Source: Candidatus Omnitrophota bacterium (GTDB lineage: Bacteria; Omnitrophota; Gorgyraeia; Zapsychrales; JANLHA01). Taken from it: DNA of 64,000 nucleotides. Positions within the stretch are counted from its first letter, which is position 1, and each line of letters opens with the position of its first letter. Under the pieces are notes generated by a model. The model searched no databases. It had not been told where the DNA came from and saw nothing but the letters and a program-made list of their open reading frames with translations. This document shows, in pieces, positions 32,307-62,300 of the stretch. The stretch is from NCBI GenBank assembly GCA_020632555.1, contig JACKFI010000001.1:133152-197151 (forward strand). Direction: 5' to 3'. The position numbers and the translations under genes were made by a program.

Positions 32307-32602
32307 TTCTTTCTCCTTTTGTTTTTAAAAGTTCTGTCTTAAAAAAATTGTAGAATCGCAGTGGAGGTTGTTGACCTGCAAGACGGCTTTTCTACGAGCA
32401 ACTTTCTTAAGACAGAACGTGGGGATTTGAACCCCTCGGATTACTCCTTGACCAGGGCGAGCGTTTATCTGCAAAATGATATGGCCGATGCCATGTCATC
32501 GCACTGGATTCGCTCGCATATTTTTTTATCCCAATTTTTGCTAAAGGATTTTGCTTTTGGTAAATTGGGATTACGCAAATTTTTTCTATCGAAAATCTGC
32601 CT
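32307..32602 (-). ncRNA. Structured non-coding spacer between rtcB and the SPFH gene, with a tRNA T-arm-like motif (candidate ncRNA or tRNA remnant)
   Basis: No ORF. On the minus strand: 10-bp hairpin ATCCCAATTT/AAATTGGGAT (32528-32571); 7-bp stem GCGAGCG/CGCTCGC (32457-32517); exact T-arm GGGGTTCAAATCCCC (rc of 32421-32435); 12-bp stem GTTCTGTCTTAA/TTAAGACAGAAC (32331-32342 with 32407-32418) followed by TTTT. Confidence 0.35.
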
Positions 32603-34120: not shown

Positions 34121-34163
34121 TTGTTTTTCCCTTATATTGCCCCTTTCCTTTATCGTTGCTTAA

Positions 34164-34192
34164 AGCATACCCTATCCAAAGCCAAATGTCAA
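34164..34192 (-). promoter_or_regulatory. sigma70-type promoter candidate for rtcB
   Basis: Minus strand reads TTGACA (rc of 34187-34192), a 17-nt spacer, then TATGCT (rc of 34164-34169), about 45 nt upstream of the rtcB ATG. Confidence 0.4.
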
Positions 34193-34243
34193 ATTTATTT
34201 TTATTTTCTTGTATAAATGTTTATCCTGTGATATATTTATACC

Positions 34244-37346: not shown

Positions 37347-38471
37347 ATGCATCTTAGAAAACTAACCAAAAGTTTTATTGAAGAAACTCTCGACGAAGAA
37401 ATGACCCAATATCAACAACGAGAAAAACATCAGCGGTTAAAGAAAATGATCGATTACCGAAACGGACATTATCAACGCAACCTCGATACGACCATCGGCC
37501 CTCTTGATAATATTGCCGTTCCGCGTTCACGAAGCGGACTATTTAAACCTACGGTTTTTAAGCGTTACCAAAGACGCCAAGAAGCTGTTAACACCGTCAT
37601 CTGCAATGCCTTCCTGCGCGGCATATCCACCCGTGAAGTCGCTGGCGCTTTAAAACCAATCCTTGACACCAACATCTCCGCTTCCGCCGTCTCACGAATA
37701 ACAAAATCTTTAAATGCCCAAGTTAAAGCATTCCATCAACGTCAACTGCTCGACGAATATCAGTTTTTATTCCTAGACGGTATTGCTATCTCAGTCAAAG
37801 GAGCGCTTAAAGCCAAGAAAATTCTTGTCCTAACTGCTTATGGCATTACGATCTTCGGTAAAAAAGAGCTCATCGCCTTTAGAATCTCTAACAGCGAGTC
37901 AAATCAAGCCTGCGAAGGATTTTTAAATGATCTATTTAAACGCGGCCTGCAAGGCAAAAACCTTAAATTGATTATCACCGACGGGTCCAAAGGCTTTATT
38001 AACGCCGTCGACCTCGTTTACCCTCACGTCAAACATCAGCGCTGCTGGGTTCATAAACTTCGTAATTGCACTAAACATCTTAAGAAATGCGATATTGATG
38101 CATTTAAAAATGATGCCCGCAAGATTTACAATGCCTCGACTCATCGAGATGCTGTCGCGGCTTTTAAGAGTTTACGCCAACATTGGGTCAAAGATTATCC
38201 GCAAGTTGTCAAACTCATCGAACAGGATTTAGATAGTCTTTTGGCTTTTTTAGAAATTCCAATCAAGGAACAATACCGCGAATTTATCCGTCGTCGAATT
38301 CGTACAACCAACATCATCGAGCGTTCATTCCGGGAAATCAGACGCCGCACCAGACCCATGGGATGTTTTGCAAATATTGATAGCGTCAGCAGGATTATTT
38401 ATGCGATATTTAATCGCTTAAACACCAAATGGCAGGAGAAACCTTTAACCCAATTTACACAATTTATTTGA
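37347..38471 (+). mobile_element. IS256-family (mutator-type) transposase gene; IS ends not delimited
   Basis: 374 aa. FLFLDGIAISVK, IITDGSKGFINAVDLVYPHVKHQRCWVHKLRN, TTNIIERSFREIRRR (DDE region). N-terminus somewhat short for the family. I could not identify convincing terminal inverted repeats. Confidence 0.8.
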
Positions 38472-38549
38472 CATTACCGCAAATTGAAAGGTGCGGTTAA
38501 AACAAGAAAACCCCGTCTCTCCTCGACGGAAAACAGGGTTTTATATTGG

Positions 38550-38563
38550 TTGCGGGGACAGGA
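38550..38563 (-). repeat. 14-nt duplicate of the tRNA-fMet 3' end
   Basis: TTGCGGGGACAGGA is identical to 38731-38744 (discriminator, 3' acceptor strand and start of the T stem), 181 bp from the intact gene. It runs directly into the palindrome CCTGCCTACCGGCAGGCA (38564-38581). Confidence 0.6.
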
Positions 38564-38695
38564 CCTGCCTACCGGCAGGCAAGTTTGAATGGTTTCGCGG
38601 CTTCGCTTACGCTCAACCATTTCCTCGCCTAACGGCTCGGTCACCTGCGCTCGCTTTCGCTCGCTGCACGTCCATTCACCCATCCCACTAATAAA

Positions 38696-38725
38696 TTAAG
38701 AAGGCCCCAATTGGGGCCTTCTTAA
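38696..38725 (-). terminator. Rho-independent terminator downstream of tRNA-fMet
   Basis: Perfect 30-nt palindrome TTAAGAAGGCCCCAATTGGGGCCTTCTTAA, 6 nt after the tRNA 3' end, followed on the minus strand by TTTATT. Confidence 0.7.
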
Positions 38726-38730
38726 TTTAA

Positions 38731-38804
<74 letters not shown>

Positions 38805-42720: not shown

Positions 42721-43693
42721 CTTTCTTTTTCTTTGTTTGCTCAGCGGACTCATTTGCACGCCTTTGGCTTGTGCACCCCAAAACGTACCCCAAAAAGTTT
42801 CACTGACCTCTGCGCAGGAAAAATTTCTTAAACTCTGCCATGAAGAGCTCAAGTACGAGGTCTCCGTGTTTCCCAAGGGCAAAACGCTGTGGGTTTATGT
42901 TCCGCTGTCTGATAATATCAGCATTCTCAAAGCGGCACCCAAAAACCAAACACCGCCGGCGGATACCATAGAAAGCTGGTCCATCAATTTTCTAAAAAGC
43001 ACGTTTGAAAACAAAACATTTGTGATCAGCTATGACATTACGCCGACTAAGAAATATGATCAACCCCTAACATATAAAAATAGCTATTCCGATGAATATT
43101 CGAAGAAACAAAGAGAAGTCTTAACCGCTTTGACGCGCGCGTATTTTGATGTCGGGCAAAAGAACATCGACAGTTCTTTGACCGTTGGCAATCAAGCCGA
43201 TACGACCAGCGATAAACCCCTAGTCAAAAACATTGCCGAGGGCATTTTGCCGCCAGAGAAAGAAGCCGCGCCTCCCGAATTCTTTGTCACAATCTTTGCC
43301 GACATCAAAAACGGGGTCGCGGTAAAAACCACCAACTATTTTGAAGATATGCGCATGGCTCTCTCAAACCCGCCGGCTATTTCTAACGACGAATATGCCA
43401 AACGTTTTGTTTATGAAATATTGGGAGATGAGAAGATGATTGGCAATACAACCGGTACCAATCTAGAAATGAATGAAATCATTTTGAGCGATTTTTTGGC
43501 CAAACAAATCGAAACCCGCATCAAATACCAGTTCACGCAAAGTAATTTTCCTCCCACGGGACAAGTGCTAGATGAGATTTGGACTATCGTCGGAGAAACC
43601 TGCCGTTTGTATCAATTCAAGGATTTCGAGAAAATCAAACTCATTGACCTGCAGACTCAAAAAGAATCAACTTTCGATAAAAGCCAACTTTAG
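42710..43693 (+). CDS. Hypothetical lipoprotein
   Basis: Start moved to MKYNFLFLCLLSGLICTPLAC (lipobox LAC). This ATG (42710) overlaps the FtsH-like stop. No known domain. Confidence 0.55.
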   Translation: MKYNFLFLCLLSGLICTPLACAPQNVPQKVSLTSAQEKFLKLCHEELKYEVSVFPKGKTLWVYVPLSDNISILKAAPKNQTPPADTIESWSINFLKSTFENKTFVISYDITPTKKYDQPLTYKNSYSDEYSKKQREVLTALTRAYFDVGQKNIDSSLTVGNQADTTSDKPLVKNIAEGILPPEKEAAPPEFFVTIFADIKNGVAVKTTNYFEDMRMALSNPPAISNDEYAKRFVYEILGDEKMIGNTTGTNLEMNEIILSDFLAKQIETRIKYQFTQSNFPPTGQVLDEIWTIVGETCRLYQFKDFEKIKLIDLQTQKESTFDKSQL

Positions 43694-44535
43694 AACTCCA
43701 CGCCCACTTTCATGCCGACGATAATTGAAGTATTCTCGAATTCTTGCTGTGATTTAGCCGCTTGCACGCCGGTGTGGAAAACGGGCTTCACCTCCGAGCT
43801 GTCGATGCTCCAATAATCCACGTAAGGCTCAAAAATATAATTTTTGTCACTCATTTCTTTACGAATTTGGATAGAAATTTTAAAACCATACCCGGAATCT
43901 TGGTCATTATCAACATCACCAAATAAAGGGTCCAAATCACTCAAATAGGTCGTTTGTTTGCCAGACCAAAAGAAATCATATTCTGCCTTGACTCCAGCCG
44001 ACCAACCTTTGGCTAATGGGGTATTGGTTTCAAAACCCAACGGCGTGTACAAATATTCAGAAACTCGTCGATATCCCGCATTAACTTTTTGCAATTGATC
44101 TTTCAAATAACGATAACCAATCCCGGCAAATGGCGTGATCGTCGTGTCTGAAAATATCGAAAAATCATAGCCAGCCAAACCGCGAAATTCACTGATAAAG
44201 TTTTTAACATCCTGAATCTCATAATAACGATCATCATAAAGATAACCGTTAAAATCAACTCTGCCGAAGATAATGCGGCCATCAACTTTGAGCATAACCT
44301 TGGAAAATTGTTCCACCCACGATTCTCCCCGATACGTGTACGAACCCGACAAACCATACAAAAATCCATTTTCTTCCATAGCTGTTTCTTTAAAATCGTA
44401 ATAGCCCGCCTCGGGACTTAAAGTGATGGTATGTGTTTTAGGTTCCAAAGCGTCGACCGCACCAGGAGCCAAAGCACAAACTAAAAATAATACAACAATC
44501 AATATCGCAAACCTTGGCATAATCAACCTCCTCAA
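43690..44535 (-). CDS. Hypothetical outer-membrane beta-barrel protein
   Basis: 281 aa. Signal peptide, alternating beta-strand pattern rich in Y/G/D, C-terminal ..MKVGVEF. Confidence 0.5.
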   Translation of the reverse strand: MRRLIMPRFAILIVVLFLVCALAPGAVDALEPKTHTITLSPEAGYYDFKETAMEENGFLYGLSGSYTYRGESWVEQFSKVMLKVDGRIIFGRVDFNGYLYDDRYYEIQDVKNFISEFRGLAGYDFSIFSDTTITPFAGIGYRYLKDQLQKVNAGYRRVSEYLYTPLGFETNTPLAKGWSAGVKAEYDFFWSGKQTTYLSDLDPLFGDVDNDQDSGYGFKISIQIRKEMSDKNYIFEPYVDYWSIDSSEVKPVFHTGVQAAKSQQEFENTSIIVGMKVGVEF

Positions 44536-45870: not shown

Positions 45871-45974
45871 ATCAATCTCTTGTCCTTTTTGCTGACTTAC
45901 TTAAAGTACGTCAATTATGCCCTGTTTTGGTCGAAAAATCAAGGTAAGCGGATAAAAGAACTTAAAAAGAACAA

Positions 45975-47996
45975 TTAAGGACGATGTTGAAGTTTTTTCT
46001 CGAGGGTTTGCAATTGCAGTTCAATTTTTTCAAAGGTCTGATCTTGTAAGCGCATTTGATTGTTCTGCTCTTTGAGCGCGCCGGTTAGAACCGCGGTAAT
46101 GCCCATCGGATCAACACTTCTGCGACCTTCTTCAGCGACGAACTCCGGAACATCTTCGGCAATAAACCCGACGTGATGTTCCTCATGATTGACTTTATAA
46201 TTATAAGTCACAGGCTGCAATTCTTTGACCACTTCTAAAGCTTGGCGGGTATCTAATGGATAGATATGCTCTTTATACTCGCGGCTGGATAAAGTCATCC
46301 ACGTTCCAACATCGTCCAAATGCGCATTATTACCAAAATGCAAAGGGTAGGCCGGATCAGGTCGTCCAACACCAATTCGACCATTATTTTTAACCATAAA
46401 AATATCTCCAGCGGTTGCGGAGTTCTGTGAAGTCACAGCAAAAAAATCGTCCCCATTATTAATTTTTATATCTAAAATCGCACTGGGCGCAGTGTTACGA
46501 ATACCGAATTTGGGATTATTGGTACTGGGCGCAATAATAAACGCATCCGAGGCTGAAATCGAAACAGCTGATATGGAATACCCCCACACAAAAGATCGAT
46601 TTGCGCTATTAATCAAATTCATATAACGTCCTCCTGCCCATGAATAATCGCCCAAAACCGTATTATTTCGACCATTGCTAATGACTGAATAATTTCCTGA
46701 AACATCATTATTCACACCACCAACAACTATTGAAGAACGTCCAGCCCTATTATTAGCCCCTCCCCAAATAACCGCATAATCCCCAGATGTCACATTTCCT
46801 GTTCCACCCATAATCGCCGACCAAGAGCCATTAACTGTATTGCTCCTGCCTCCATCAATCACTGAATACAAACCATTCGCGGTATTGGTCAATCCTCCCG
46901 CAATAAATGAATAACTCGCCAACGCATTATTTGATTGCCCCCCGCCGACCACAGCATAAGGACCAGCTGAATTTTGACAACCGCCACTGACCACAGAATA
47001 AATACCGGGATCGTGATGCAATGTGCCGCCGGAAATAGTAAAATAATCGGCCGCAACAGTTTTGGTCGGATCCGTTAAACAATTTGGAAAAACCCATTGC
47101 GCATTATTACTACTGCCGCCGGTGATCGTCGCACCGACTCCTGCCGCAACATTACAAGAACCACTAAAAACAACATTATAATCATTTCGTGTTTGGCTTG
47201 ATTCTCCACCGACAACAGAAGCTCTCCCCTGCACATCACTTCGCTCACCCCAATTGACAGCATACTGACTGAAAACATCTGTTTTTAAACCGCCCAAATT
47301 AGCTGAATAATCTCCGGAAGCTTTTGAATACCGTCCAAATGCAACTGCAGCTAACCCACTGGCCTTAATATTGTCTTTACCTAAAGCAATTGAATAATCG
47401 CCAATATTGCCATCATTCCAAGCATCGGAAAAATCTTCTTCCCCCCAAAAATGCGTTAAATGTCCAACACGAAAAGCCGCTTTACGAGGATACCAAATCA
47501 TTTGCACCGCCCCTTCAAAACTAGACTCAGCAATAGCAGGCAAGTCAGGCAAAAGTTGGCCACTGCCCAATTGCCCCATCGCTAAAATACCGCCATCATT
47601 TTCTAAAGTCAGCTTGAATTCCGGAACAGTCGTGCCAATACCCACAAAAATATTGGGATTGGTGACTATCGCAGTTGGAAAAACATCATTGCCCGACTGG
47701 GTCCAAGAGCTTTCCAACAATGTCCATTGTCCATTTCCACTGCCATCATCAAAACAATAATGCAATTGATCTGTCCCCTGCTTAACAGACAATGTCCCAA
47801 GCGCACAAGGGGTGGATAATACTTGCGGCAATAAAGTCACTCGATCATAAGCGCCTTGCGGTGCCGGATAATATGTCGTTAATGTAAGACTCTCAGCCAA
47901 CGCAGACAAAGAACTCAATACAATCAAAGCGACGCTGATCGCCCCAATTTGAATTGAGCGTAAAAAACCATCGTCTCTGTGCTGAGCCTTTTGCAT
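45975..47996 (-). CDS. Secreted tail-fibre-like Gly-rich beta-helix repeat protein with C-terminal peptidase-S74 / intramolecular chaperone domain (paralog 1)
   Basis: 673 aa. Signal peptide ..LSALAESL. N-module TTYYPAPQGAYDRVTLLPQ..C..G..C. Many GGxxNxaxGxYSxixGG repeats. C-terminal LSSREYKEHIYPLD..LQPVTYNYK..HVGFIAEDVP then a coiled coil. Confidence 0.75.
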   Translation of the reverse strand: MQKAQHRDDGFLRSIQIGAISVALIVLSSLSALAESLTLTTYYPAPQGAYDRVTLLPQVLSTPCALGTLSVKQGTDQLHYCFDDGSGNGQWTLLESSWTQSGNDVFPTAIVTNPNIFVGIGTTVPEFKLTLENDGGILAMGQLGSGQLLPDLPAIAESSFEGAVQMIWYPRKAAFRVGHLTHFWGEEDFSDAWNDGNIGDYSIALGKDNIKASGLAAVAFGRYSKASGDYSANLGGLKTDVFSQYAVNWGERSDVQGRASVVGGESSQTRNDYNVVFSGSCNVAAGVGATITGGSSNNAQWVFPNCLTDPTKTVAADYFTISGGTLHHDPGIYSVVSGGCQNSAGPYAVVGGGQSNNALASYSFIAGGLTNTANGLYSVIDGGRSNTVNGSWSAIMGGTGNVTSGDYAVIWGGANNRAGRSSIVVGGVNNDVSGNYSVISNGRNNTVLGDYSWAGGRYMNLINSANRSFVWGYSISAVSISASDAFIIAPSTNNPKFGIRNTAPSAILDIKINNGDDFFAVTSQNSATAGDIFMVKNNGRIGVGRPDPAYPLHFGNNAHLDDVGTWMTLSSREYKEHIYPLDTRQALEVVKELQPVTYNYKVNHEEHHVGFIAEDVPEFVAEEGRRSVDPMGITAVLTGALKEQNNQMRLQDQTFEKIELQLQTLEKKLQHRP

Positions 47997-48011
47997 ATTT
48001 TTATCCCTGTC

Positions 48012-50006
48012 TTATTTCTCTAACCTTGTCCGCAATACTTTAATTCTTTCTTCAATCAGCTGAATCTTGTGTTCCCGTTGTTCAATTTCAGATTGTTGAT
48101 TTTGAACAACCTTGGTTAAAACGGCAACAATATCCATTGTGCTCAAAGTTTTGCGGTCTTTAACCGCAACTAAACTCGGAACATCTTCGGCAATAAATCC
48201 AATATTCGTATGATCAGGATCATTTTTATATTCAAATGTAACCGGATTTAATTGCTCAAAAGCTTGCTGGGCATCTGCTCCTGTCAGCGGAATAATATTT
48301 TCTTTAAGCTTGCGGCTAGATCCATTTTCCCAGGATCCTCCAGAACTCACATAAGCCCCATTGCCAAACTCCATTGCATAAGTAGGATTTGTTGGCATTA
48401 TTTTTTGGCTGCCAATATAACCATTTCTTTTCACAATAAAAACATCCCCAGAAGTTATTTTTCCCAAAGCCAAGAAATTATCAGCAGTTCCGTTGGCATT
48501 AACTTCTAAAACACCAACCGGATTAGTATCCCTGATCCCAACTCTGGGATTCCAAACAACTCCGCCAATCGTTCCCGGCGCAATAATAAATGCATCCGGC
48601 ACAACAATAGAAACCGCTGTATCAGAATATCCCCACGCAAAAGTTCGCTGCGCGGTACTTGTCAAATTCATAAAACGTCCCCCAGCCCAAGAATAATCGC
48701 CATCTACTATATTGTCCGTCCCACCCATGATCGTAGAATACCCGCCGTAAGCTCTGTTTCGCTCACCCCCCGCGATCACAGAATAATTATAGCTAGCATC
48801 ATTTTGCCACCCACCACCTATAATCTGGCCGAAACCTCCGCGAATCACATTCGTGCGTCCACTAGAAATAAACGAATACCTATTACCAGTTAAAATGGAA
48901 TTGCTGTCCCCACCGGAAATTCGCACATATTCACCAGCTGGACTAAACACAGAAACGTATTCACCGGTTTTATTCGCCAAGCCACCGCCAATGCTTGAAT
49001 AAGGTCCCTCAACAATATTGCCCTCACCCCCCAAAACAATAGAATAATCAGATCTGACTTTATTGTCCTTACCCCCACCAATCAGCGAATACCCCGTCGG
49101 AACACCAAAATCAGTAAAATCAATTAAATTATTAAAACCACCATTGATGTTTGAATATGGAATTGTGACACGATTTTGTGCCCCGCCGGCAACAACACTA
49201 TAAATCGCAGTGGCCTGATTATCTAAACCCCCAAGAATCGCAGAAAAATCTCCGGAAACCACATTGTTTTCTCCACCCCAAAGTGCCGCATATCGACCAC
49301 TGGCCATATTGTCCTTGCCACCGCCAACCGCTGAAAAATCCGCACTGGCCGTGTTCCTAAATCCACTGCCAACCACAGAATATAATGCACTGGCAATATT
49401 TCCATCGCCGCCGCCGATAGCTGAATAATGTCCACTGGCCCTTGTATTCTTTCCAAAAGCCGTGGAATAATTGCCGATATTCCCATTGTCCCATTGAGCC
49501 CCATCAACATAACCGGCGCGAATCGCGGCTTTACGCGGATACCAAATAAACCGGCTGCCCGCTCCTAAATTCGGCAAGGTCGCGCCACTGCCAAATGTCC
49601 CCTTAGCCATAATCCCGCCATCTTTTATTAAAGTCAGTTTTGAATCCGGCGTGTTGGTCCCAATCCCAACACGCAATAAAGGATTGCTCAAAGTATCTTT
49701 CAAATAAATATCATCATTCGTTTGCATCCAAACATCACTAAGCGCTTCCCACGCACCATTACCGCTGCCATCATTGTGACAATACTGAAGACTCCCCAAA
49801 GAATTCACATACAAAGATCCAATCGGACAAGCCGCAGTCAAGTCTGCGCGTGGCAGTAAACGAAAAGTGTCATATTCCCCTACCAATGAAGGATAATAAA
49901 TATCCATTTTCATTTCTGGGCTCGCCTGCGCAACGGGGACAAACACAAATCCCGTACAAATGAGGAGAAGAATTAGGAAAAGTTTTTTTGAATTATTTAT
50001 CATCAT
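48012..50006 (-). CDS. Secreted tail-fibre-like repeat protein with C-terminal S74 chaperone domain (paralog 2)
   Basis: 664 aa. Signal peptide ..PVAQASPE. DIYYPSLVGEYDTFRLLPR. Same repeat core. C-terminal GSSRKLKENIIPL..LNPVTFEYK..NIGFIAEDVP. Confidence 0.75.
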   Translation of the reverse strand: MMINNSKKLFLILLLICTGFVFVPVAQASPEMKMDIYYPSLVGEYDTFRLLPRADLTAACPIGSLYVNSLGSLQYCHNDGSGNGAWEALSDVWMQTNDDIYLKDTLSNPLLRVGIGTNTPDSKLTLIKDGGIMAKGTFGSGATLPNLGAGSRFIWYPRKAAIRAGYVDGAQWDNGNIGNYSTAFGKNTRASGHYSAIGGGDGNIASALYSVVGSGFRNTASADFSAVGGGKDNMASGRYAALWGGENNVVSGDFSAILGGLDNQATAIYSVVAGGAQNRVTIPYSNINGGFNNLIDFTDFGVPTGYSLIGGGKDNKVRSDYSIVLGGEGNIVEGPYSSIGGGLANKTGEYVSVFSPAGEYVRISGGDSNSILTGNRYSFISSGRTNVIRGGFGQIIGGGWQNDASYNYSVIAGGERNRAYGGYSTIMGGTDNIVDGDYSWAGGRFMNLTSTAQRTFAWGYSDTAVSIVVPDAFIIAPGTIGGVVWNPRVGIRDTNPVGVLEVNANGTADNFLALGKITSGDVFIVKRNGYIGSQKIMPTNPTYAMEFGNGAYVSSGGSWENGSSRKLKENIIPLTGADAQQAFEQLNPVTFEYKNDPDHTNIGFIAEDVPSLVAVKDRKTLSTMDIVAVLTKVVQNQQSEIEQREHKIQLIEERIKVLRTRLEK

Positions 50007-50008
50007 AT

Positions 50009-51943
50009 TTACTCAAAGTGCCTGTTTAATTGCTCTAGCTCATTTAATAAATCTTCACTTTTTTGCTTCTGTTGCTCAATTTTCTCTTGTTGATAAGCAA
50101 CAACCTTGGTTAAAACCGCAGCAATATCCATTGGGGCTAATCCTTGGCGTTGTTTTTGAACAACCAAAGCAGGAACATCTTCGGCAATAAAACCAACATA
50201 TTCTTCATCTTTTTGTAATTTATAATTAAACCGTACCGGATTTAAACCACGCAATGTTTCTAAAGCTTGATCCAGGTCCAAAGCCGTAATATTTTCTTTA
50301 TATTCACGACTTGATGAAGGCATGAATTTACCACTGGCATCAACATAGGCACCGTTACCAAAATCCATAATGTATTGCGGATTACTCTTATTAACCCCAA
50401 TGCAACCATTGCAACTGCCGCCTTTCTTGATGGTAAAAATATCACCCACAACAGAACTAGAGTTGCTGGTAAAGTTTAAATAATCATCCGCAGAATTATT
50501 GCCATTAATTTCCAACCCAGCGGCAGGAGTTATATCGCGAATACCCATTCTGCCAGAATAAATGATAAAAGCATTGGCTGTCGAAATATCTGCAGGCGCT
50601 GCAGAATATCCCCACAAAAAAGTATTATTAGCCCCAGTGGTCAATCTCATATTTCGACCAGCAACAAATGAATATGGGCCAACAATAGAATTATCAGCCC
50701 CACCGGCAATCATCGAACAATCAGAAGCCGCCTCAACCCTATTGAGCTTACCCCCCATAACCGTTGCATAAGGACTCAAAACGCCATTGTCTTCTCCTGC
50801 GCCAATCACAGAATAATCCTGACTCACAGTATTTCTATGCCCACCACCGACGACCGAATAAAGACCCTGAACAAGATTATCACTGCCGCCGGCAATAACC
50901 GAATACTGTCCAGAAATAACATTTGACTTCCCACCGGAATTAACAGAATATGAAGCGCTGGACGAATTTAAATGCCCCCCCGCAATAACAGTCCGATCCG
51001 TTACATTGACAAAGGTGTTGGCCCGACCGCCGCTAATGACCCCATAACTGCTAACCTGACTTGGCGAAAAAGAATTATCCCCACCACCTGAAATTATTTG
51101 ATAATCATAATAAGTCTTATTATTGTTCCCACCCGCAATAATTCTAAAACGAGAATAATTATCCGACCCGCGCGGGTGAGAATTATCTCTCCCTCCGCCG
51201 ATATCAGACCACACGTCCCCCGCACTATTATTAAAACCGGCTAGTCCTCCCTCCCAACAATCATCACGGCAAACATTGTTTTCTCCACCAAGAATAATTC
51301 CGCCCTTAGCTGCATTCGATTTACCTCCTAAAATCATTCCCCATCTGGCATCGTTATTCTCGCCACCTAAAACAAACATCCCTCTGCTGCCATATCCCAT
51401 AACTACACTGCCTGGATCAATATTCCCAACATCCCATTCATTCCCGGCAGCATACCCGGAACGAAAAGCTTTTTTCGATGGAATCCACATCAAGCGCGTA
51501 CCGGCTCCCGCAGTAACTAAGGCTGTCCCACTGGCCCAACTGGGCGTAAACCATCGCGATAAAATTCCACCATCACCGGCGAGCGTTAACTTAAACTGCG
51601 GCATCATTGTTCCAATCCCAACTTTTTTAGCTGCTGGATTCGTCGTATCGGCAAGATGGAGATTGTCTCCTGTCAATACCCACGTACCAGAGACAAGCAC
51701 GTATTTAGAAAACGGAGTGTCCTTAACACAATAATAAAGTCTGCCTAGGTCTGTCGCATTGGCATACAATGTACCAACAGGACAATTTGTATTTGGAGTA
51801 ATAGCTGGCTGAGGATTTAATCTGAGTTTGCTGTAATTTCCCGTTGGAGCAGGATAGTAGGACGTCATTTCCAAACCGCTGCAAGCTGCACAGGCGATAA
51901 ACGCGAACGAAAAAAACAAATATGCTGAAAATATTCTTCGCAT
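50009..51943 (-). CDS. Secreted tail-fibre-like repeat protein with C-terminal S74 chaperone domain (paralog 3)
   Basis: 644 aa. Signal/lipobox-like FIACAACSG. TSYYPAPTGNYSKLRLNPQ. Same repeat core. C-terminal PSSREYKENITALD..LNPVRFNYK..YVGFIAEDVP. 2-nt gap to paralog 2. Confidence 0.75.
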   Translation of the reverse strand: MRRIFSAYLFFSFAFIACAACSGLEMTSYYPAPTGNYSKLRLNPQPAITPNTNCPVGTLYANATDLGRLYYCVKDTPFSKYVLVSGTWVLTGDNLHLADTTNPAAKKVGIGTMMPQFKLTLAGDGGILSRWFTPSWASGTALVTAGAGTRLMWIPSKKAFRSGYAAGNEWDVGNIDPGSVVMGYGSRGMFVLGGENNDARWGMILGGKSNAAKGGIILGGENNVCRDDCWEGGLAGFNNSAGDVWSDIGGGRDNSHPRGSDNYSRFRIIAGGNNNKTYYDYQIISGGGDNSFSPSQVSSYGVISGGRANTFVNVTDRTVIAGGHLNSSSASYSVNSGGKSNVISGQYSVIAGGSDNLVQGLYSVVGGGHRNTVSQDYSVIGAGEDNGVLSPYATVMGGKLNRVEAASDCSMIAGGADNSIVGPYSFVAGRNMRLTTGANNTFLWGYSAAPADISTANAFIIYSGRMGIRDITPAAGLEINGNNSADDYLNFTSNSSSVVGDIFTIKKGGSCNGCIGVNKSNPQYIMDFGNGAYVDASGKFMPSSSREYKENITALDLDQALETLRGLNPVRFNYKLQKDEEYVGFIAEDVPALVVQKQRQGLAPMDIAAVLTKVVAYQQEKIEQQKQKSEDLLNELEQLNRHFE

Positions 51944-52033
51944 AAGCGGTTTTGAAAAAGACCAACTGATATAAAAAAAACACTTTTTTATACTATAGGA
52001 GAAGTATACCTGAAAAAATGACTAGTCACAATG

Positions 52034-53317
52034 TCAAGAATGCATCTTTTCAGTCAAAAAGGCAAGATCGCCGCCGTGGCGATAACGAATCATACCGGCA
52101 ATGCCTACAATGGTAAAAATCGCGCCCACCGAAACCAAAATCCAAAACGCGTCAATACGTTCAGCTAGCCATGAACTGATCAACATGGAGGTCAAAAACG
52201 CAAAATGAATAACGATTTCCAACGCGCTAAAAACTTTTCCTCGCATCGCCTCATCACTGGCCACATGAACAATCGTATTAGACGCGATAAAAATCGGACC
52301 AATCACAATACCCAATAAAAACGCCAGAATCCCAGCCAAAAAAACACTTGGGTATTGCTGGACGGTCGTCGCGAAAACAATAACCATCGCTCCGCCAGCC
52401 ATCAAGCTCAAAAAAATCGTACGCGACCACAAAACTTTTTTGCCCCAACGCCCATAAAGCAAAGCGCCAATAAAGAGCCCCACACCTAAGCAAACAGCCA
52501 AAACACCCAAGTCCCGCGTGACCGTGTTAAAAGCTTTTTGAATAAAAACGATAATGACTACATAAATAGCACCAGCTGCGGACAAAAGAATAAAAAACAT
52601 ATTCATCACGAAACGAATCTGACGCTGGCTAAACAAATACTGCAAGCCTTCTTTGATTTCTGAAAAAAAAGATTTCTCAATCGCAAGAAATTCCTTGCCC
52701 TTATCAATGATTTGTTTTTTACTCAATTCGACATGAAACTTAGCACCCATTGATCCAATTAATAACGCTGAAAAAAAGTATGTTGCTCCATCACCAAAAA
52801 AACCTGCTTTCACGCCAACTTTATCAACCAAAAAACCACCTAATGCACAACCCAAGACAAAAGCCAACATACCTGTGGTCGTCAAAAGCGAATTGGCCAT
52901 CAAAATATTTTCGGCGGGAACAAGTTCAGGAACAATAGACATTTTAGCGGGCACATAAAAACGGCTAAAACAAAAAATCAGAAAAACAATAATATAAATT
53001 TCGATCATGGATTGTTTATACAAAAAGAAAAAAGGAATGATCAAAACCAGAAGTCCACGAACCAAATCACATACAAATAATGTCTTGCGTTTGTCCCAAC
53101 GATCCACATAAACGCCGGCAATAGGCCCGACGATAAAAACGGGAATAATCGTAAACGACAACAGTTTGGCCAAGCTGTAAGCTGAACCAGGTTCACGCTG
53201 GGCAATCAAACCAATCAAGGCCATTTGATTTAAGCGATCTCCAAACTGCGAAATCAGCTGTGCCCACCACAGACGCATAAACTGCTTATTTTTTTTATCA
53301 AAAATAAAACGCAACAT
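52034..53317 (-). CDS. MFS transporter
   Basis: 427 aa, about 12 TM helices. GVYVDRWDKRKT loop motif between TM2 and TM3. Confidence 0.85.
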   Translation of the reverse strand: MLRFIFDKKNKQFMRLWWAQLISQFGDRLNQMALIGLIAQREPGSAYSLAKLLSFTIIPVFIVGPIAGVYVDRWDKRKTLFVCDLVRGLLVLIIPFFFLYKQSMIEIYIIVFLIFCFSRFYVPAKMSIVPELVPAENILMANSLLTTTGMLAFVLGCALGGFLVDKVGVKAGFFGDGATYFFSALLIGSMGAKFHVELSKKQIIDKGKEFLAIEKSFFSEIKEGLQYLFSQRQIRFVMNMFFILLSAAGAIYVVIIVFIQKAFNTVTRDLGVLAVCLGVGLFIGALLYGRWGKKVLWSRTIFLSLMAGGAMVIVFATTVQQYPSVFLAGILAFLLGIVIGPIFIASNTIVHVASDEAMRGKVFSALEIVIHFAFLTSMLISSWLAERIDAFWILVSVGAIFTIVGIAGMIRYRHGGDLAFLTEKMHS

Positions 53318-53320
53318 AAT

Positions 53321-55126
53321 TTAAAGCTTCTCAATACGCCGGGCCATATCGGCCAAATGCATAGTCGCCAGACGATCCAATTCATCAGGACCGGACTTGA
53401 GCAACAAAACACGCTCATAAAACGCGATCGCTTTTTCCCGTTGCCCCAGCATTTGATACGTTGAAGCGAGGTTAAATAAAGCTTCTTTCAAATTTCCATC
53501 TAATGAAATTGCTTTTTCGTAATACTCAATGGCCCGCCGGGGATCAGATAATTTCGAATACAAAATCCCCAAACTATGGTAACCGCGCGCATTATCGGGT
53601 TTTTCTCTCATCAAACGTTCATAATGTGAAACCAAAAACAATTCCGTAGACTTGATATTATCGTCAAGCAAGTTCTTCAAATCGCCCGGATCGGTAATCT
53701 TATCATATTCGCGCAAACCTTCCCAAAACTTACCTTGATCACATAAGGATTTACCCAAACCAATGCGCGCCCGGATATTAAAAGGTTCAACATCCAAAAC
53801 TTTTCGAAAATTATGTTCAGCCAGATCAAACCGATTGCGCTTAGCATAAGATAAAGCCAAAGAATTGCGAATACGCGTATTGGTCGGATTAATGGACAAA
53901 GTGCGCTCGAACATTGCGATTTCATTGCTGGAATAAATGTTGTATTGAATCGTTAAAAGAATCAAAAATAAAGAAAACCCTATCACACCAGAGCGAATCA
54001 TGAAAGGAGAAATCAATTTACGGCGCGCACAGGCTTTTTTGTAATGCTCAAAGAGCACCATGGCTAAAACAAAAATACCAATGCTGGGCACATATAAAAA
54101 ATGCTCCGCTGTTGAAATATAGCCCGGCTGGACTCCCACTGTTGTAATAATCTGAGAAACAGGTAAAAGTTCAATAAAAAACCAGCTCACACAAAAAGCT
54201 TGCAACCCTGTGATTTTCTCGCGCTTAATCCAAGCCATCGCCATTAAGGCCAAGAAAAATAGCACAGTCAGAATCACCTGAGTGTCCATGAAACTAATAA
54301 AAATCGGCTGAGAACGATCAAAATAAAGATCAACCGGAAAAATGAAAAGGCGCAAATCGATGATCACACTTTTTAAAAATGTCAAAAAACCCAAAACCAT
54401 TTCACTCGCCGATCGCCACGGAAAAGTTCTCGTAATGCCTAAAATATGGCGTATCCCCAAATAAACTCCGGCGACAGCAGCGTAAGGAACAAGGCCAACG
54501 AAAAGTTTTTTAAAATGAAAGCTTTGTTTTTCCTTAATAAAATAAGAATAACTTAAAAACACCAATGGAAGAATACCCGCGGATTCTTTGCACAGCAGCG
54601 CCAAAGCAAACGCGATCAGTGAAAAATACGAATAATATTTCCGGCGGTCGGAATAAATAAAAAAATAAAATGACGCCAGCCCATAAAAAGCGCACAAAAG
54701 AATAGAACGCCCGGGAATATTAGACACCGCCTCCCATTGAATCGGATGCAAAGCAAACAAAAATGCCGCTCCCAAGGCCATGGCTCGTCGATCTGTCAAA
54801 GCAAAAACAATCGCAAAAACCCAGAAAGCGTTGAGAATATGAATAAGAATATTGTCTACATAATACGGAACGGGATCGAGTTTAAAAAAATGGTATTCCT
54901 TCATAAAACTCAGCGTAACCAATGGCCGATAATAAGCCTCCCCACTAAAAAAAGCGCTGGTCATCACTTTGGGAATATTACGAAAACTGCGAACATCTTC
55001 ATTGCGGACAATTGAATAATCATCATCCAGCGTCTTAAAAGCGCCATTAATGCTAAACGAATAGACAAAACATGTCATAAACGCCAACAAAATCAACCCA
55101 ACAAGTGTTTTACGTTTTTCAATCAT
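53321..55126 (-). CDS. GT-C-fold membrane glycosyltransferase with C-terminal TPR repeats (TMTC/PMT-like), paralog A
   Basis: 601 aa. First-loop acidic motif FKTLDDDYSIVRNEDV, YYRPLVTLSF, about 10 TM helices, then 4-5 TPR units (..YHSLGILYSKLSDPRRAIEYYEKAISLD..). Confidence 0.7.
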   Translation of the reverse strand: MIEKRKTLVGLILLAFMTCFVYSFSINGAFKTLDDDYSIVRNEDVRSFRNIPKVMTSAFFSGEAYYRPLVTLSFMKEYHFFKLDPVPYYVDNILIHILNAFWVFAIVFALTDRRAMALGAAFLFALHPIQWEAVSNIPGRSILLCAFYGLASFYFFIYSDRRKYYSYFSLIAFALALLCKESAGILPLVFLSYSYFIKEKQSFHFKKLFVGLVPYAAVAGVYLGIRHILGITRTFPWRSASEMVLGFLTFLKSVIIDLRLFIFPVDLYFDRSQPIFISFMDTQVILTVLFFLALMAMAWIKREKITGLQAFCVSWFFIELLPVSQIITTVGVQPGYISTAEHFLYVPSIGIFVLAMVLFEHYKKACARRKLISPFMIRSGVIGFSLFLILLTIQYNIYSSNEIAMFERTLSINPTNTRIRNSLALSYAKRNRFDLAEHNFRKVLDVEPFNIRARIGLGKSLCDQGKFWEGLREYDKITDPGDLKNLLDDNIKSTELFLVSHYERLMREKPDNARGYHSLGILYSKLSDPRRAIEYYEKAISLDGNLKEALFNLASTYQMLGQREKAIAFYERVLLLKSGPDELDRLATMHLADMARRIEKL

Positions 55127-56927
55127 TTTTTTTCTCTGCCTGGTTAAGGTAATTTTCTACCGCTTTTAAATTCATATCCCCATCAAACTTTTCTTGAGCT
55201 TTTGCCAATACCGTCCGCGCTTGCGGCAAATCACCGGCCTCAATGTTAATATGTATCACAAAAACATAAGCCAGTACCGATTGAGAATCAACTGCCATGG
55301 CCTGCAAAGCACAATCTTTTGCCGACACATAATCTTTTTTAATCAAATAATTCCTCGAAAGCTCCAAATACAATCCCGAAAAACCGGGAGCCAACTCAAT
55401 GGCTTTCTTCAAATAACCAATCGCGGCGTCGGGAGTAGCAGCCGCTTTACTTAGAAGATGATAAGTCATAAATTTTTCTTTGTCACTGGAAATAAACGGA
55501 TTATTCATCGCGACTTTAAGATGTTGTGTAAGATATTTAACCGCCTGCGGCGAATGACCTGCCAAATAACTATCCAAGCCTAAAATCCAATACGGGCGAG
55601 AACTATCCGGATACCGGCGAATCATTTCGCGGCAAGCCACAAAATTATTTCTAAAGAAATCATTATTGGCAATGGTTAAAATAATCAAAAACCCTGTCCA
55701 AACTCCTGGCAATATCAATCTCATGTTCAACGTAATATGTCGTCGAGTAAACCACTGCGCAAGATGGTCTATACCAATCGCAAATAACAAAAAAAATCCA
55801 ATCGACGGCAAATACAAGAAACGAAATGCTAAAGGATTAAGCAAAGGAAAGATCCCAGAAGCCGGGAAATAATTGACAAAAAACCACACAAACCCAAAAG
55901 TAATAATTTTATCGCGTCGAAAAAAATTAACGGCTAAAATTATGGACAATAAGCTAACAACCAACGGCACCATCAATTCCCAAATCGGCATTGGAAAAAT
56001 TGGCGGGGCATACAAGGGAGGAAGAACAGAAACTTTAAACGGCAAAACCAGCGCCACGCAGTACTGTAAGAAAAGTTTAAGCATCAAGACAATTTGCGCT
56101 AAACCTTTTAAAGCATAAGGCGAAGGCTGTAAATAAAATACATTAGGAATTAAAATGAAGTACACACATAAATAAAAGATCGTGATTCCAGCCAAAACCG
56201 CGTAAAGCCCCTTCTTTTGACCAAGAATCTGTCGACCCTTTTGCGCTGAAAGAAAGAACCAGTCGACAATAAAAATAATAAATGGAAAAGTTACTGCTGT
56301 TTCTTTTGAAAACAAAGCCAAAAAATATGACACTCCGACAAGACCAAACCAGAGGCCTTTTCTTTTAGCCTCACTAAAGCGCGCATAAGCTAAAACCGCG
56401 CACAAATAAAACATCGTCATCAAAATATCCGAACGATACCCGCTGGCATTGACAACTTCCGACTGAATTGGATGGACTGCGAAAAAACTTGCCGCCCAAA
56501 AAGCTATTTTTTTATTGCCGGAAATCCGCAGGATAAAATAAAAAACCAAAATGCAGGTCAAAAAATGAAGAAATATATTACTAAAATGATGCCCCGTCGG
56601 ATTGTTCTTCCATAAAGCGTAATCTATAAAAAAGGTCGCAGCGCTAACCGGACGATAAGAAACGCACCCGGAAAAAGATTGAGTCTTTTGTGAAGCATCA
56701 TAAGTCGACGGATTCATGACCAAATCTTGTGAGAAAATCTTTGGGAAATTGGTCAGACTTTTATAAAATTCATTGCCGCTAAAAAGAGCCTTGTCGTCGC
56801 CAACAAAGTCATTTTGCAAACAATTGTGAAAAGCGGCTGCAACAAAAAGCGCTAAAAGAAAAATAATTAATCGATTGGTGAAGGGAATTTTTGTGAAGGA
56901 AAAATTTTTCAAGGCACGAAGAATCAA
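55119..56927 (-). CDS. GT-C-fold membrane glycosyltransferase with C-terminal TPR repeats (TMTC/PMT-like), paralog B
   Basis: 602 aa. NDFVGDDKALFSGNEF, SYRPVSAATFF, multi-TM core, C-terminal TPR units. 8-nt overlap with paralog A. Confidence 0.7.
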   Translation of the reverse strand: MILRALKNFSFTKIPFTNRLIIFLLALFVAAAFHNCLQNDFVGDDKALFSGNEFYKSLTNFPKIFSQDLVMNPSTYDASQKTQSFSGCVSYRPVSAATFFIDYALWKNNPTGHHFSNIFLHFLTCILVFYFILRISGNKKIAFWAASFFAVHPIQSEVVNASGYRSDILMTMFYLCAVLAYARFSEAKRKGLWFGLVGVSYFLALFSKETAVTFPFIIFIVDWFFLSAQKGRQILGQKKGLYAVLAGITIFYLCVYFILIPNVFYLQPSPYALKGLAQIVLMLKLFLQYCVALVLPFKVSVLPPLYAPPIFPMPIWELMVPLVVSLLSIILAVNFFRRDKIITFGFVWFFVNYFPASGIFPLLNPLAFRFLYLPSIGFFLLFAIGIDHLAQWFTRRHITLNMRLILPGVWTGFLIILTIANNDFFRNNFVACREMIRRYPDSSRPYWILGLDSYLAGHSPQAVKYLTQHLKVAMNNPFISSDKEKFMTYHLLSKAAATPDAAIGYLKKAIELAPGFSGLYLELSRNYLIKKDYVSAKDCALQAMAVDSQSVLAYVFVIHINIEAGDLPQARTVLAKAQEKFDGDMNLKAVENYLNQAEKKND

Positions 56928-59376: not shown

Positions 59377-62300
59377 TTACAACTTGGGCGAAAGAACAAT
59401 AACGCCAGATTTTACAGTACTGGTATCCTGATCTTGCGGATAAGCCGCAACAACCGTATCTCCACTTAAAGCAATACTCTGCCCAAAATTGAGAATACCG
59501 GCTCCTGCTAAATTATACGCCCAGGCAAAAGAATTATTGGCCTGACGTTTAAAAACAATCACTGAATCCGTTGTATGTATCGAACCTAACGAGAAGGTTT
59601 TAGGATGCATCGCAACGGCGACAGTATTGTCTTTGGCCGTAAGGCTGATAATCGCACTGCTCGAATGCCACGGCAAGCTTAAGCGAGAATACGATGTATT
59701 CCACGTGCTAACCGGCGCTCCATACGGAGCATTGCGCATTTCATTAAAAATAAAAACATTACTCAAAAGAGTAATATCAGGAACAGCACTCAACGCAACA
59801 ATAAGCTGATGACCAACAACCTTGGTTGCCGTCAAAACAGCCTCAGCATTCTGCGGCGTTAATAACCCTATCTCTTGACCAAAATTAGCTATATCGTTTT
59901 CATACGTTTTTTCTAATGTCCAGAGACCTTGTCCTTTGTAACGATAGATAAAGATTTTACTCTTTTCGGTTTCCGAAGCTTTGGGCGCGCCAACTGCAAT
60001 AATCCCATCACCGACAGCTACCGATTGAGCAAATTGAACTTTACCAGCTTCCACTCCAGACAACTTCAATGTGGCCGCATAAGCCCATGCACCATTGTTA
60101 CGACTGATCACATACACAACTTTAGCCGACGGTAAAGAAACCGCCAAGCTGTCTGACGAAAGAGCCAGTTTCATATTACTAACTAAAGCTGGATCTAAAT
60201 TATCAATTTTACTAAGATCCAATTTATTGCCAGCTTGAACCCAAGCATTATTAACTTTGGAGAAAAAATAAAGACTGCTCTGCGCTTGCACAACCAACGC
60301 ATCTTTATTAGCCGCCAAAGTCTTGCCAAACTGATCACCATCTGCCAAACCTACAGGCGCGATAATCGCGGGCACAGGCACAGACTGTGTTGCATCAACA
60401 GGCATGCTCTTATATTGATAAACAACACCTTTGCCATTAACACTAGGGGCTCCGACGAATAATTCATTGCTCTCTTGCAAAACAGCAACGCTTTGCGCAA
60501 AACCAATGTTAAACTGCGGCGTTGCCAAACGGCCTGCTGACAGATTATCCAAATTGCTATAATACTCACCAACCGTGATTTTATCAGCTGGCTTTTTTAT
60601 AGCAGCAATAAATGAATCCATCACAAATTTTGCTTTCGCAGGATCTTTTAATGCCCAAATATTTTGAAAATACTTATTCATTGCATACTTTGTGTTCCAA
60701 AGCATTTTACTATCATAATAGTTACCAACGTTTGTTTTATCTGCCGGATTAAGAACTACGGCTATAATGGATTCCATCACAAACTTCTCTTTGGCAGGAT
60801 CCTTCGCCTGCGCCAAAATCGAAACATAACTATTGATTGCCGCTTGAGCTTTAAGCACAGCCGTTTGATCATAATACTGCCCAATTGTGGTTTTATCCGC
60901 AGGATTTAAAACTGTGGCCAACAATGATGTCATCACAAACTTCGCCTTAGCTGGATCTTCGTTCCCAGCCGATAAAACTGTGAAATAATTGTCAATCGCG
61001 ACTTTCGCTTTTGTCACCGCCACTTGATCCAAATACTGACCAATTGCGGTTTTGTCGGCAGGATTTAAAACTGTGGCCAACAATGATGTCATCACAAACT
61101 TCGCCTTAGCTGGATCTTCGTTCCCAGCCGATAAAACTGTGAAATAATTGTCAATCGCGGCTTTCGCTTTTGTCACCGCCACTTGATCCAAATACTGACC
61201 AATTGCGGTTTTGTCGGCAGGATTTAAAACTGTGGCCAACAATGATGTCATCACAAACTTCGCCTTAGCTGGATCTTCGTTCCCAGCCGATAAAACTGTG
61301 AAATAATTGTCAATCGCGGCTTTCGCTTTTGTCACCGCCACTTGATCCAAATACTGACCAATTGCGGTTTTGTCGGCAGGATTTAAAACTGTGGCCAACA
61401 ATGATGTCATCACAAACTTCGCCTTAGCTGGATCTTCGTTCCCAGCCGATAAAACTGTGAAATAATTGTCAATCGCGGCTTTCGCCTTTGTCACCGCCAC
61501 TTGATCCAAATACTGACCAATCGCGGTTTTGTCGGCGGGATTTAAAACCGTCGCAATCACTCTATCCATAACCAATTTTGCATTAACTGGATTTTGTACC
61601 GCAGCCAATAAAACCTGAAAATAATTATCAATTGTAATTTTAGAATTTGTTACCGCAGATTGATTGTAATAATCTCCAACAATCGCTTTTTCTGCAGGAT
61701 TCAAAACTGCAGCAATAGCCGAATCCATCGCCAGTTTTGCTTGCGCTGGATTTTTGGTAACAATCAACAATGTCGCAAAATAATCATCAATCGCAGCTTT
61801 AGCTTTATTAACAGCCATCTGAGACATTCCAATGCTGTAATAATTTGCAACAATGGTTTTGTCAGCAGCATTAAGAACCGTCGCCATTACAGCCTCCATA
61901 ACAGCTTTTGCCGTTGCTGGATTTTGCCCAGCGGCCAAAGCAGAAAAATAATTATCAATCGCAACTTTGGCCTTCACAATAGCTGTTTGGCCGTAATAAT
62001 TATTAACAATAAGTCTATCCGATGGATTAAGAACCGCCGCCATAGCGGCTTCCATGACAGTTTTCGCTATTGCTGGATTTTGCGCAGCCATCAAAGCAGA
62101 AAAATAATTATCAACCGCAGCTTTGGCCTTCACAATAGCCGTTTGGCCGTAATAATTATTAACAATAAGTTTATCTGATGGATTAAGAACCGCCGCCATA
62201 GCGGCTTCCATGACAGTTTTCGCTATTGCTGGATTTTGCGCAGCCATTAAAGCAGCAAAATACTTATCAATCGCCGCTTTGGCCTTCACAATAGCCGTTT

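Follow-up and report, generated by a model that had tools for sequence, protein, structure and literature searches.

The mosaic adhesive trimer (MAT) fibres of Bdellovibrio bacteriovorus have been shown experimentally to lie at the cell surface (Caulton et al., 2024, PMC10769870), and self-cleavage of their S74 domains, prevented in the Bd3182 S782A variant, has been shown experimentally as well (PMC10769870). The MAT family divides into S74 and non-S74 tips carried on one N-domain, and Supplementary Table S3 of the same paper lists a 713-amino-acid "S74-like" protein from Omnitrophica as a MAT (PMC10769870). The Omnitrophota are widespread, uncultured and very small bacteria, many of them suspected predators or parasites of other microbes. 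Their discussion has so far centred on giant open reading frames (ORFs) and type IV pili, and I found no main-text literature linking the phylum with S74 domains or tail fibres. Here, I describe three adjacent fibre genes within a stretch of 64,000 nucleotides from a Candidatus Omnitrophota bacterium (contig JACKFI010000001.1, positions 133,152 to 197,151; hereafter the window), whose enolase is 100% identical to that of a metagenome-assembled genome (MAG) deposited at NCBI as "Candidatus Omnitrophica bacterium".

The reading that I favour, and consider rather probable, is that of a single chromosomal Omnitrophota operon encoding three exported fibre subunits of the MAT kind, acting by the mechanism proposed below. 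By analogy, the fibres are most likely cell-surface adhesion fibres like those of Bdellovibrio for gripping prey. What is new here is the ordered gene triad, its presence or absence as a cassette, and an N-module family that has many non-S74 ends and no matches on viral contigs. A preliminary description of this DNA, made from sequence alone, had reported three adjacent paralogues of 644–673 amino acids, and the three ORFs are found exactly where it placed them, on the minus strand:

50009..51943, minus strand: gene C, first in the operon, a C-type fibre of 644 amino acids (MCB9756963.1); ORF call, PF13884 at 38.4 bits, C-type clade.
48012..50006, minus strand: gene B, second in the operon, a B-type fibre of 664 amino acids (MCB9756962.1); ORF call, PF13884 at 39.7 bits.
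45975..47996, minus strand: gene A, third in the operon, an A-type fibre of 673 amino acids (MCB9756961.1); ORF call, PF13884 at 43.2 bits.
52003..52031, minus strand: TTGTGA-17-TATACT, resembling a sigma-70 promoter by consensus only, within the 90-bp spacer upstream of gene C.
45871..52038, no strand: the 6.2-kb fibre cassette, absent at the same site in close relatives (blastn against L016, L017 and L018).

The genes are co-directional and transcribed in the order C, B, A, with 2 nt between the C stop and the B start, and 15 nt between the B stop and the A start. The proteins share 35–38% pairwise identity, are all labelled "tail fiber domain-containing protein" at NCBI, and have the same five-part plan: a Sec-type leader, an N-module, a beta-roll, a stalk and a Peptidase_S74 domain. 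The NCBI version of B begins at M32 and is 633 amino acids long, so that the leader is lost (start region 49911–50006); the longer ORF, starting at 50006, agrees with the paralogues and orthologues, all of which bear leaders.

Every fibre gene in nine genomes was assigned to the A, B or C type by comparison. The order C-type, B-type, A-type is found in 12 of 12 triads, and a neighbour-joining tree built from the first 24 proteins resolves three clades, one per type. Copy numbers in the nine genomes are 3, 3, 3, 3, 3, 3, 6, 6 and 6, each six being two complete triads, and are never 1, 2, 4 or 5. The gaps within triads range from −4 to +15 nt (the sole exception, 212 nt in L019, precedes a gene with an apparently miscalled start), and those between triads from 159 to 334 nt. 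The three genes are all intact, with 42–59% identity kept across genomes. The triad is an ancient, ordered, co-inherited and translationally coupled set of three non-redundant types, and is duplicated only as a whole. The fibres had been described as diversified by duplication, which is misleading: because the triad is ordered, forms three deep orthologue clades and duplicates as a unit, this is not a locally expanding paralogue family. The strict three-gene rule is an unexplained regularity, and poses a directly testable question on fibre assembly.

Recent repeat expansion within the fibre genes was also considered and ruled out, as no DNA-level tandem repeats were found in genes A, B or C. 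In one genome (L022, 14302–14667), the second triad is followed by an orphan ORF of 121 amino acids. It encodes nothing but an A-type S74 domain (...SSRELKEN...GFIAEDAP...), and appears to be what is left of a fibre gene that was lost or recombined.

Three contigs from close relatives (L016, L017 and L018) have flanks 89–96% identical to the window DNA by blastn, in the same gene order, but in these purN comes immediately after the gene for a transporter of the major facilitator superfamily (MFS), the spacer being 98 bp, and fibre genes are lacking. Homology to these relatives ends at 52039, the end of the MFS gene, and restarts at 45870, the start codon of purN. The cassette is therefore a 6.2-kb presence/absence polymorphism between close relatives, which suggests that the fibres belong to a variable, possibly host-range-determining, gene pool. 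In an independent Logan assembly gene B adjoins the TPR gene, and the arrangement is therefore not a mis-assembly. A signature of site-specific insertion was looked for and rejected: the two junctions have no common word of at least 8 bases and no integrase, and the nearest transposase lies 7.5 kb away.

The surroundings of the triads are those of a chromosome. Pfam or PHROGs scans of every window ORF of at least 150 amino acids revealed no capsid, terminase, tail or integrase gene in the 64 kb. Eight related loci were each read with 10-kb flanks, and none of these nine loci, the window included, contains a capsid, terminase, sheath, tube, baseplate or integrase gene. Of the eight, seven lie between acpP-smc and fabV, and one elsewhere in a housekeeping context. 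The lack of phage genes reported earlier for the neighbourhood is thus upheld, and extends to prophage and tailocin genes at the eight related loci. The window itself encodes glycogen/maltose enzymes, rtcBA and rtcR, enolase, an FtsH-like protease, purN, the MFS transporter, TPR/GT-C proteins, tRNAs, an AbiE pair, Fic and one IS256-type transposase. The last, an IS256/Mutator-type gene at 37347–38471, is the sole mobile-element gene present.

The N-terminal parts of the three proteins are as follows:

51881..51943, minus strand: C leader peptide (about residues 1–21), two K/R and then a hydrophobic 12-mer with a mean Kyte-Doolittle value of 2.37.
49923..50006, minus strand: B leader peptide (residues 1–28, ending ...VAQA before S), read from sequence; Kyte-Doolittle mean 2.98.
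47895..47996, minus strand: A leader peptide (residues 1–34, ending ...ALA before E), read from sequence; Kyte-Doolittle mean 2.59.
51623..51880, minus strand: C N-module (residues 22–107), YYPxPxGxY..LxP..C..G.LY..C..W; local N-module hidden Markov model (HMM), domain E 1.3e-25.
49671..49922, minus strand: B N-module (residues 29–112).
47646..47894, minus strand: A N-module (residues 35–117); local N-module HMM, E 3.4e-28.

Each leader has a K/R-containing n-region, a hydrophobic 12-mer (mean Kyte-Doolittle value >2.3) and, about 6 residues ahead of the YYP motif, a small-x-small site. This pattern is present in all 14 triad proteins examined (the first 14 of 24), with cleavage-type sites AYA or GQA, each before E, in the C-type orthologues. 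The Sec-type signal peptide proposed earlier for each protein agrees with these features in A, B and C. The same holds for the conserved module YYPxxxGxYxxxxLxP with two Cys, which measures about 80 amino acids, and in which Y42, Y43, P44, G48, Y50, L55, P57, C64 and C81 (numbered as in protein A) do not vary among the three proteins. An AlphaFold model of the N-module (43 sequences) predicts a two-Cys beta domain, with a predicted local distance difference test (pLDDT) score of 85–94, preceded by the YYP strand at pLDDT 50–63. This fold has no match in the PDB, and none at E ≤0.1 among the viral models of BFVD.

A profile of the N-module retrieved 1400 cluster representatives among 1.84 billion, 502 of these at E ≤1e-10; a protein homologue search queried with the N-module alignment gave zero matches. 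The module starts at about residue 20–30 in nearly all of the about 150 representatives listed. Among 134 representatives examined, 32 have an S74-like end, and the others end differently, in at least three recurrent non-S74 types plus singletons. In one set of homologues, all five N-module-bearing proteins with a named organism are from Omnitrophica or Omnitrophota. The core of the module (profile positions about 18–60, ...PR..C..G.LY.....L.(Y/F)C..G.W) is also found as a C-terminal tip, in P0122, P0123, P0140, P0154, P0164 and P0189, and in 7–23 tandem copies in giant proteins of 1000–1700 amino acids (P0134, P0136 and P0217), one of them from a Gammaproteobacteria MAG. Judging from these occurrences, the core behaves as an independent small domain.

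Downstream of the N-module, the shaft of each protein is made of a first capping loop, a beta-roll and a stalk bearing two further capping-loop-like motifs:

51404..51622, minus strand: C first capping loop (VGIGTMMPQFKLTL) and W(I/Y)PxKxAFRxG segment; three-protein alignment.
49467..49670, minus strand: B first capping loop (VGIGTNTPDSKLTL) and WYPRKAAIRAG segment; alignment, and weak profile alignment to the Bd2133 capping loops.
47412..47645, minus strand: A first capping loop (VGIGTTVPEFKLTL) and WYPRKAAFRVG segment; alignment.
50660..51403, minus strand: C beta-roll core (residues about 181–428), with GGxxN repeats of about 15 residues; repeat register.
48681..49466, minus strand: B beta-roll core (residues about 181–442); repeat register, sequence match to 3pr7, and Foldseek matches to the UspA1, AtaA and CbpF heads.
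46632..47411, minus strand: A beta-roll core (residues about 196–455), with a loop insertion of about 30 amino acids; repeat register, YadA_head and LbR_Ice_bind below threshold.
50315..50659, minus strand: C pre-S74 stalk (WGYS...AFII...GIRDITP...IGVNKSNPQYIMDF); alignment, this half being covered by PHROGs tail-fibre families.
48321..48680, minus strand: B pre-S74 stalk, with two capping-loop-like motifs (VGIRDTNPVGVLEV and IGSQKIMPTNPTYAMEF); alignment and PHROGs.
46290..46631, minus strand: A pre-S74 stalk (FGIRNTAPSAILDI and IGVGRPDPAYPLHF); alignment, the loop aligning weakly to the Bd3182 and Bd2133 loops.

The GGxxN repeats recur with a period of 15 residues and form about 17–19 turns. 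The best sequence match of the beta-roll is the head of UspA1 (3pr7, E 2.4e-15), which is also its best fold match (Foldseek E 2.6e-6), followed by AtaA and CbpF (entries 3wp8 and 9gh5), and model confidence is high across residues 200–290 of B (pLDDT >90). Pfam YadA_head matches the fibre proteins below threshold only, and a scan of genome contigs with protein B gave only a Chitinophagales relative of the beta-roll. The Gly-rich core had been called beta-helix-type; its repeats are as described, but the fold is not a generic beta-helix, being specifically a left-handed beta-roll of the YadA/UspA1 type. The capping-loop motifs of A, B and C, namely VGIGTxxPxxKLTL, (V/F)GIR(D/N)TxPxxxL and IGVGRPDPAYPL, correspond to the capping loops that MATs have in the shaft and before S74, with a spacing one residue longer than in the published consensus V-G-G/N-pi-x-x-P-x-x-x-L. 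They align to the loops of Bd2133 and Bd3182 in HMM comparisons, at sub-threshold scores.

Phage fibre proteins of 559 and 1274 amino acids on two IMG/VR viral contigs (L005 6885–10709 and L011 7464–9143) hold an internal VGIGT loop, a WYPRKAAFRxG motif and a YadA-like repeat segment, and this part of the Omnitrophota fibres is therefore common to phages. Of the N-terminal 148 amino acids, only the loop and the WYPRKAAFR segment are shared with the viral contigs, inside phage fibre genes, and the N-module is absent from these.

The C-terminal part of each protein consists of the S74 domain and a terminal helix:

50009..50314, minus strand: C S74 domain and C-terminal helix (residues 544–644); PF13884 over 544–592, local S74 HMM 8.5e-41, predicted nucleophile S544 (codon 50312–50314) and K549.
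48012..48320, minus strand: B S74 domain and helix (residues 563–664); PF13884 over 563–610, S563 (codon 48318–48320) and K568, helix 623–663.
45975..46289, minus strand: A S74 domain and helix (residues 570–673); PF13884 over 570–624, S570 (codon 46287–46289) and K575.

The identification of the C-terminus as a peptidase S74 domain, and the conservation of the S-x4-K spacing in all three proteins, are both confirmed. An HMM search with Pfam PF13884 (Peptidase_S74) places A, B and C at the scores given above, against a cut-off of 22 bits, and the Ser-x4-Lys dyad is invariant in the family alignment (38 of 38). When A is aligned to the MyRF ICA structure 7dc3 (E 0.0044), S570 falls on the position of S587A and K575 on K592. 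Ser occupies the nucleophile position in 23 of the 24 triad proteins. The one exception, an A-type protein of 708 amino acids (L020 12022–14148), reads TCSREYK and so has Cys there, also a nucleophile. The C-terminal block SSR(E/K)xKE...PV..(Y/F)xYK...GFIAEDVP is present as first described, and a long helix is predicted to follow it, at residues 623–663 of B.

These features suggest the following mechanism. Each chain, as its leader indicates, would be exported by Sec. Once in the envelope, the S74 domain would nucleate a parallel trimer, as is expected from its family, and would then cut itself off before the conserved Ser with the help of the Lys located five residues downstream of it, releasing about 101–104 amino acids and leaving a mature fibre of about 520–535. 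By analogy with MAT and phage fibres, the N-module, with its short strand and two-Cys beta domain, would hold the fibre on a partner in the cell envelope, so that the beta-roll, which is the region differing most between the three types, and the stalk exposed by cleavage could bind ligands on surfaces, host cells or prey cells. The three types would be non-redundant and made together in a fixed proportion, and the cassette would move or be lost as a unit. The earlier description of cell-encoded fibres holds on the structural side, where the S74 scores lie above threshold, the flanks are not those of a prophage and export signals are present; as an interpretation it is supported in part.

Several points weigh against this mechanism. 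A Sec leader carries a protein to the periplasm only, and no outer-membrane export route or anchor partner for the fibres was identified in the window. The N-module may be a binding unit rather than an anchor, because its core hairpin recurs at C-termini and in tandem arrays. The full-length monomer model has a mean pLDDT of 66.8, with the stalk and S74 regions poorly resolved, and it is from phylum-level literature that a predatory or symbiotic way of life is assumed for this organism.

The fixed composition of the triad could have another explanation, which I judge unlikely: obligate co-assembly, either as an A-B-C heterotrimer whose chains are chosen by cognate self-removing S74 domains, or as a 1:1:1 complex of three fibres joined through their N-modules. 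Folds of this sort are trimeric, and the genes always come in exactly three types, in copy numbers of 3 or 6, in the order C-B-A and duplicated by whole triads. Within triads, stop codons overlap the next start codon or lie very close to it, as opposed to the wider gaps between triads, and a conserved signature particular to each type is kept in the C-terminal helix of the S74 domain. Against this, the distance from YYP to the catalytic Ser varies within triads by up to 55 residues (e.g. 503/534/558), a poor fit to in-register beta-rolls unless the excess forms loops, and no charge complementarity between types is seen in the terminal helix. Taken together, these chain-length and helix-charge tests lean against a strict in-register heterotrimer. 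In addition, no precedent for a heterotrimeric S74 fibre was found in the literature searched, and the conserved order could be the simple inheritance of an old operon. To my knowledge, S74 and YadA-like fibres are otherwise known only as homotrimers. Co-assembly, if true, would be a new assembly principle for both, and a heterotrimer would be a bacterial analogue of chain selection by the procollagen C-propeptide.

It is also conceivable, though improbable, that the proteins are released rather than anchored, as polysaccharide depolymerases resembling tailspikes, as bacteriocin-like binders, or as matrix or ice-binding proteins. Glycan cleavage is the activity of many S74 proteins, the endosialidase tailspikes among them, and the absence of an identified anchor in the window would fit release, as would a match to 3ult and weak matches to LbR_Ice_bind (PF21300). 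The latter score 18.4, 22.5 and 12.2 bits for the three proteins, below the cut-off of 30 bits. Moreover, the best matches of the fibres are adhesin heads and not enzyme beta-helices, no glycosidase or lyase family is matched by them, and an N-module conserved in more than 1000 proteins with different ends fits common docking better.

That the fibres serve a phage-derived particle (a prophage remnant, a tailocin, or a device like the extracellular contractile injection systems (eCIS) or PVCs) with its other genes outside the window is very improbable: the PHROGs tail-fibre matches to the C-terminal halves, the NCBI name, the segment in common with phage fibre genes and the cassette indel would all suit it, but no phage structural or integrase gene is found at the nine loci, Sec leaders are present whereas phage and tailocin fibres assemble in the cytoplasm and have no export signal, the place of a phage attachment domain is taken by an N-module absent from BFVD and from the viral contigs found, and the three genes remain intact and conserved across genomes.

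Candidate partners among the neighbouring genes were considered for the exported fibres. A fibre glycosylation or export operon, made of the upstream genes for two TPR + GT-C/PMT_2-like membrane proteins and the MFS transporter, was ruled out because the same genes flank purN in the same order in the cassette-free relatives. An outer-membrane-protein-like gene of 281 amino acids (43690–44535) and DUF6941 were rejected as anchor partners, since both are present without the cassette.

Other features of the window are recorded here. Two overlapping paralogues of about 600 amino acids with C-terminal TPR repeats (53321–55126 and 55119–56927) are kept in relatives whether or not these have the cassette; of the two, the first matches PMT_2 (ArnT-like GT-C glycosyltransferase) weakly, and the second has TPR matches only. 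The transposase of the IS256/Mutator family (E 1.2e-89; region 37347–38804) lies just beyond a tRNA-Met. In close relatives its position is taken by genes for a Vsr endonuclease and a DNA cytosine methylase (L016 19868–21806), making this a second variable spot. An ORF of 1224 amino acids (59377–63051) contains two near-perfect in-frame tandem repeat arrays, one of 159 nt in 4.3 copies (60865–61806, 98% matches) and one of 156 nt in 6.0 copies (61870–62801, 93%). Its Pfam and PHROGs matches are all weak and partial, with no full-domain alignment, and it is kept in relatives (L016 2481–6155). An AbiEii-type toxin gene overlaps a partner of 197 amino acids that matches phrog_21852 (unknown function, E 7e-39) and is probably the AbiEi antitoxin, and a DUF4172-Fic gene adjoins these (26919–28452 and 25557–26690). 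Finally, a complete RNA-repair module occupies 30547–35842, with rtcB, a Band_7/SPFH gene and rtcA, and the divergent sigma-54 activator gene rtcR.

Three described groups of proteins resemble the window fibres in part. With the S74 fibres and tailspikes of phages (K1F endosialidase, T5 pb1) and the eukaryotic MyRF, they share the S74 domain with its Ser-Lys spacing, the capping-loop stalk and the C-terminal helix. Unlike these, they begin with a Sec leader, and where these have a virion-attachment or DNA-binding domain they carry a non-viral N-module; their genes also lie amid chromosomal housekeeping genes. With the trimeric autotransporter adhesins (YadA, UspA1, AtaA, CbpF), they share the left-handed parallel beta-roll head and its GGxxNxAxGxxSxIxGG repeats. 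However, a YadA_anchor search of the fibre proteins gave no match at E up to 1, and their C-terminus is an S74 domain followed by a helix. For this reason they are not trimeric autotransporter adhesins; they do not have the 12-stranded C-terminal beta-barrel of these proteins, nor is this type Vc secretion. The polarity is also reversed, with the presumed anchor at the N-terminus and the cleavable chaperone at the C-terminus.

The closest likeness is to the MAT fibres. Both sets are cell-encoded with no phage context, and in both a signal peptide leads straight into a conserved N-domain, rich in beta structure and lacking solved homologues; the MAT N-domain and the window N-module are likened here by position and lack of PDB homologues. 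In both, a beta-structured shaft bears VG(I/G)Gxx(x)PxxxL capping loops (the window proteins being presumed trimers by analogy) and ends in an S74 chaperone-protease with S-x4-K, and in both the N-domain is also fused to non-S74 tips. The window proteins are shorter, at 644–673 amino acids against typically about 1000 for MATs, and their shaft is a YadA/UspA1-type beta-roll of 15-residue repeats, whereas that of the Bd3182 type is an intertwined beta-helix. Their genes form a coupled, ordered triad, in contrast to the 21 scattered genes of Bdellovibrio, and localisation and cleavage have been demonstrated for Bdellovibrio, whereas for the Omnitrophota fibres they are predicted. Because the MAT paper already describes this plan and lists an Omnitrophica S74-like protein, the triad, by this analogy, belongs to a recently described kind and not to a new one. 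I know of no host-recognition molecules for the Omnitrophota, and the triads are compact, conserved and tractable candidate recognition fibres for this uncultured phylum, which carry the MAT concept beyond Bdellovibrio into a second lineage, not related to it.

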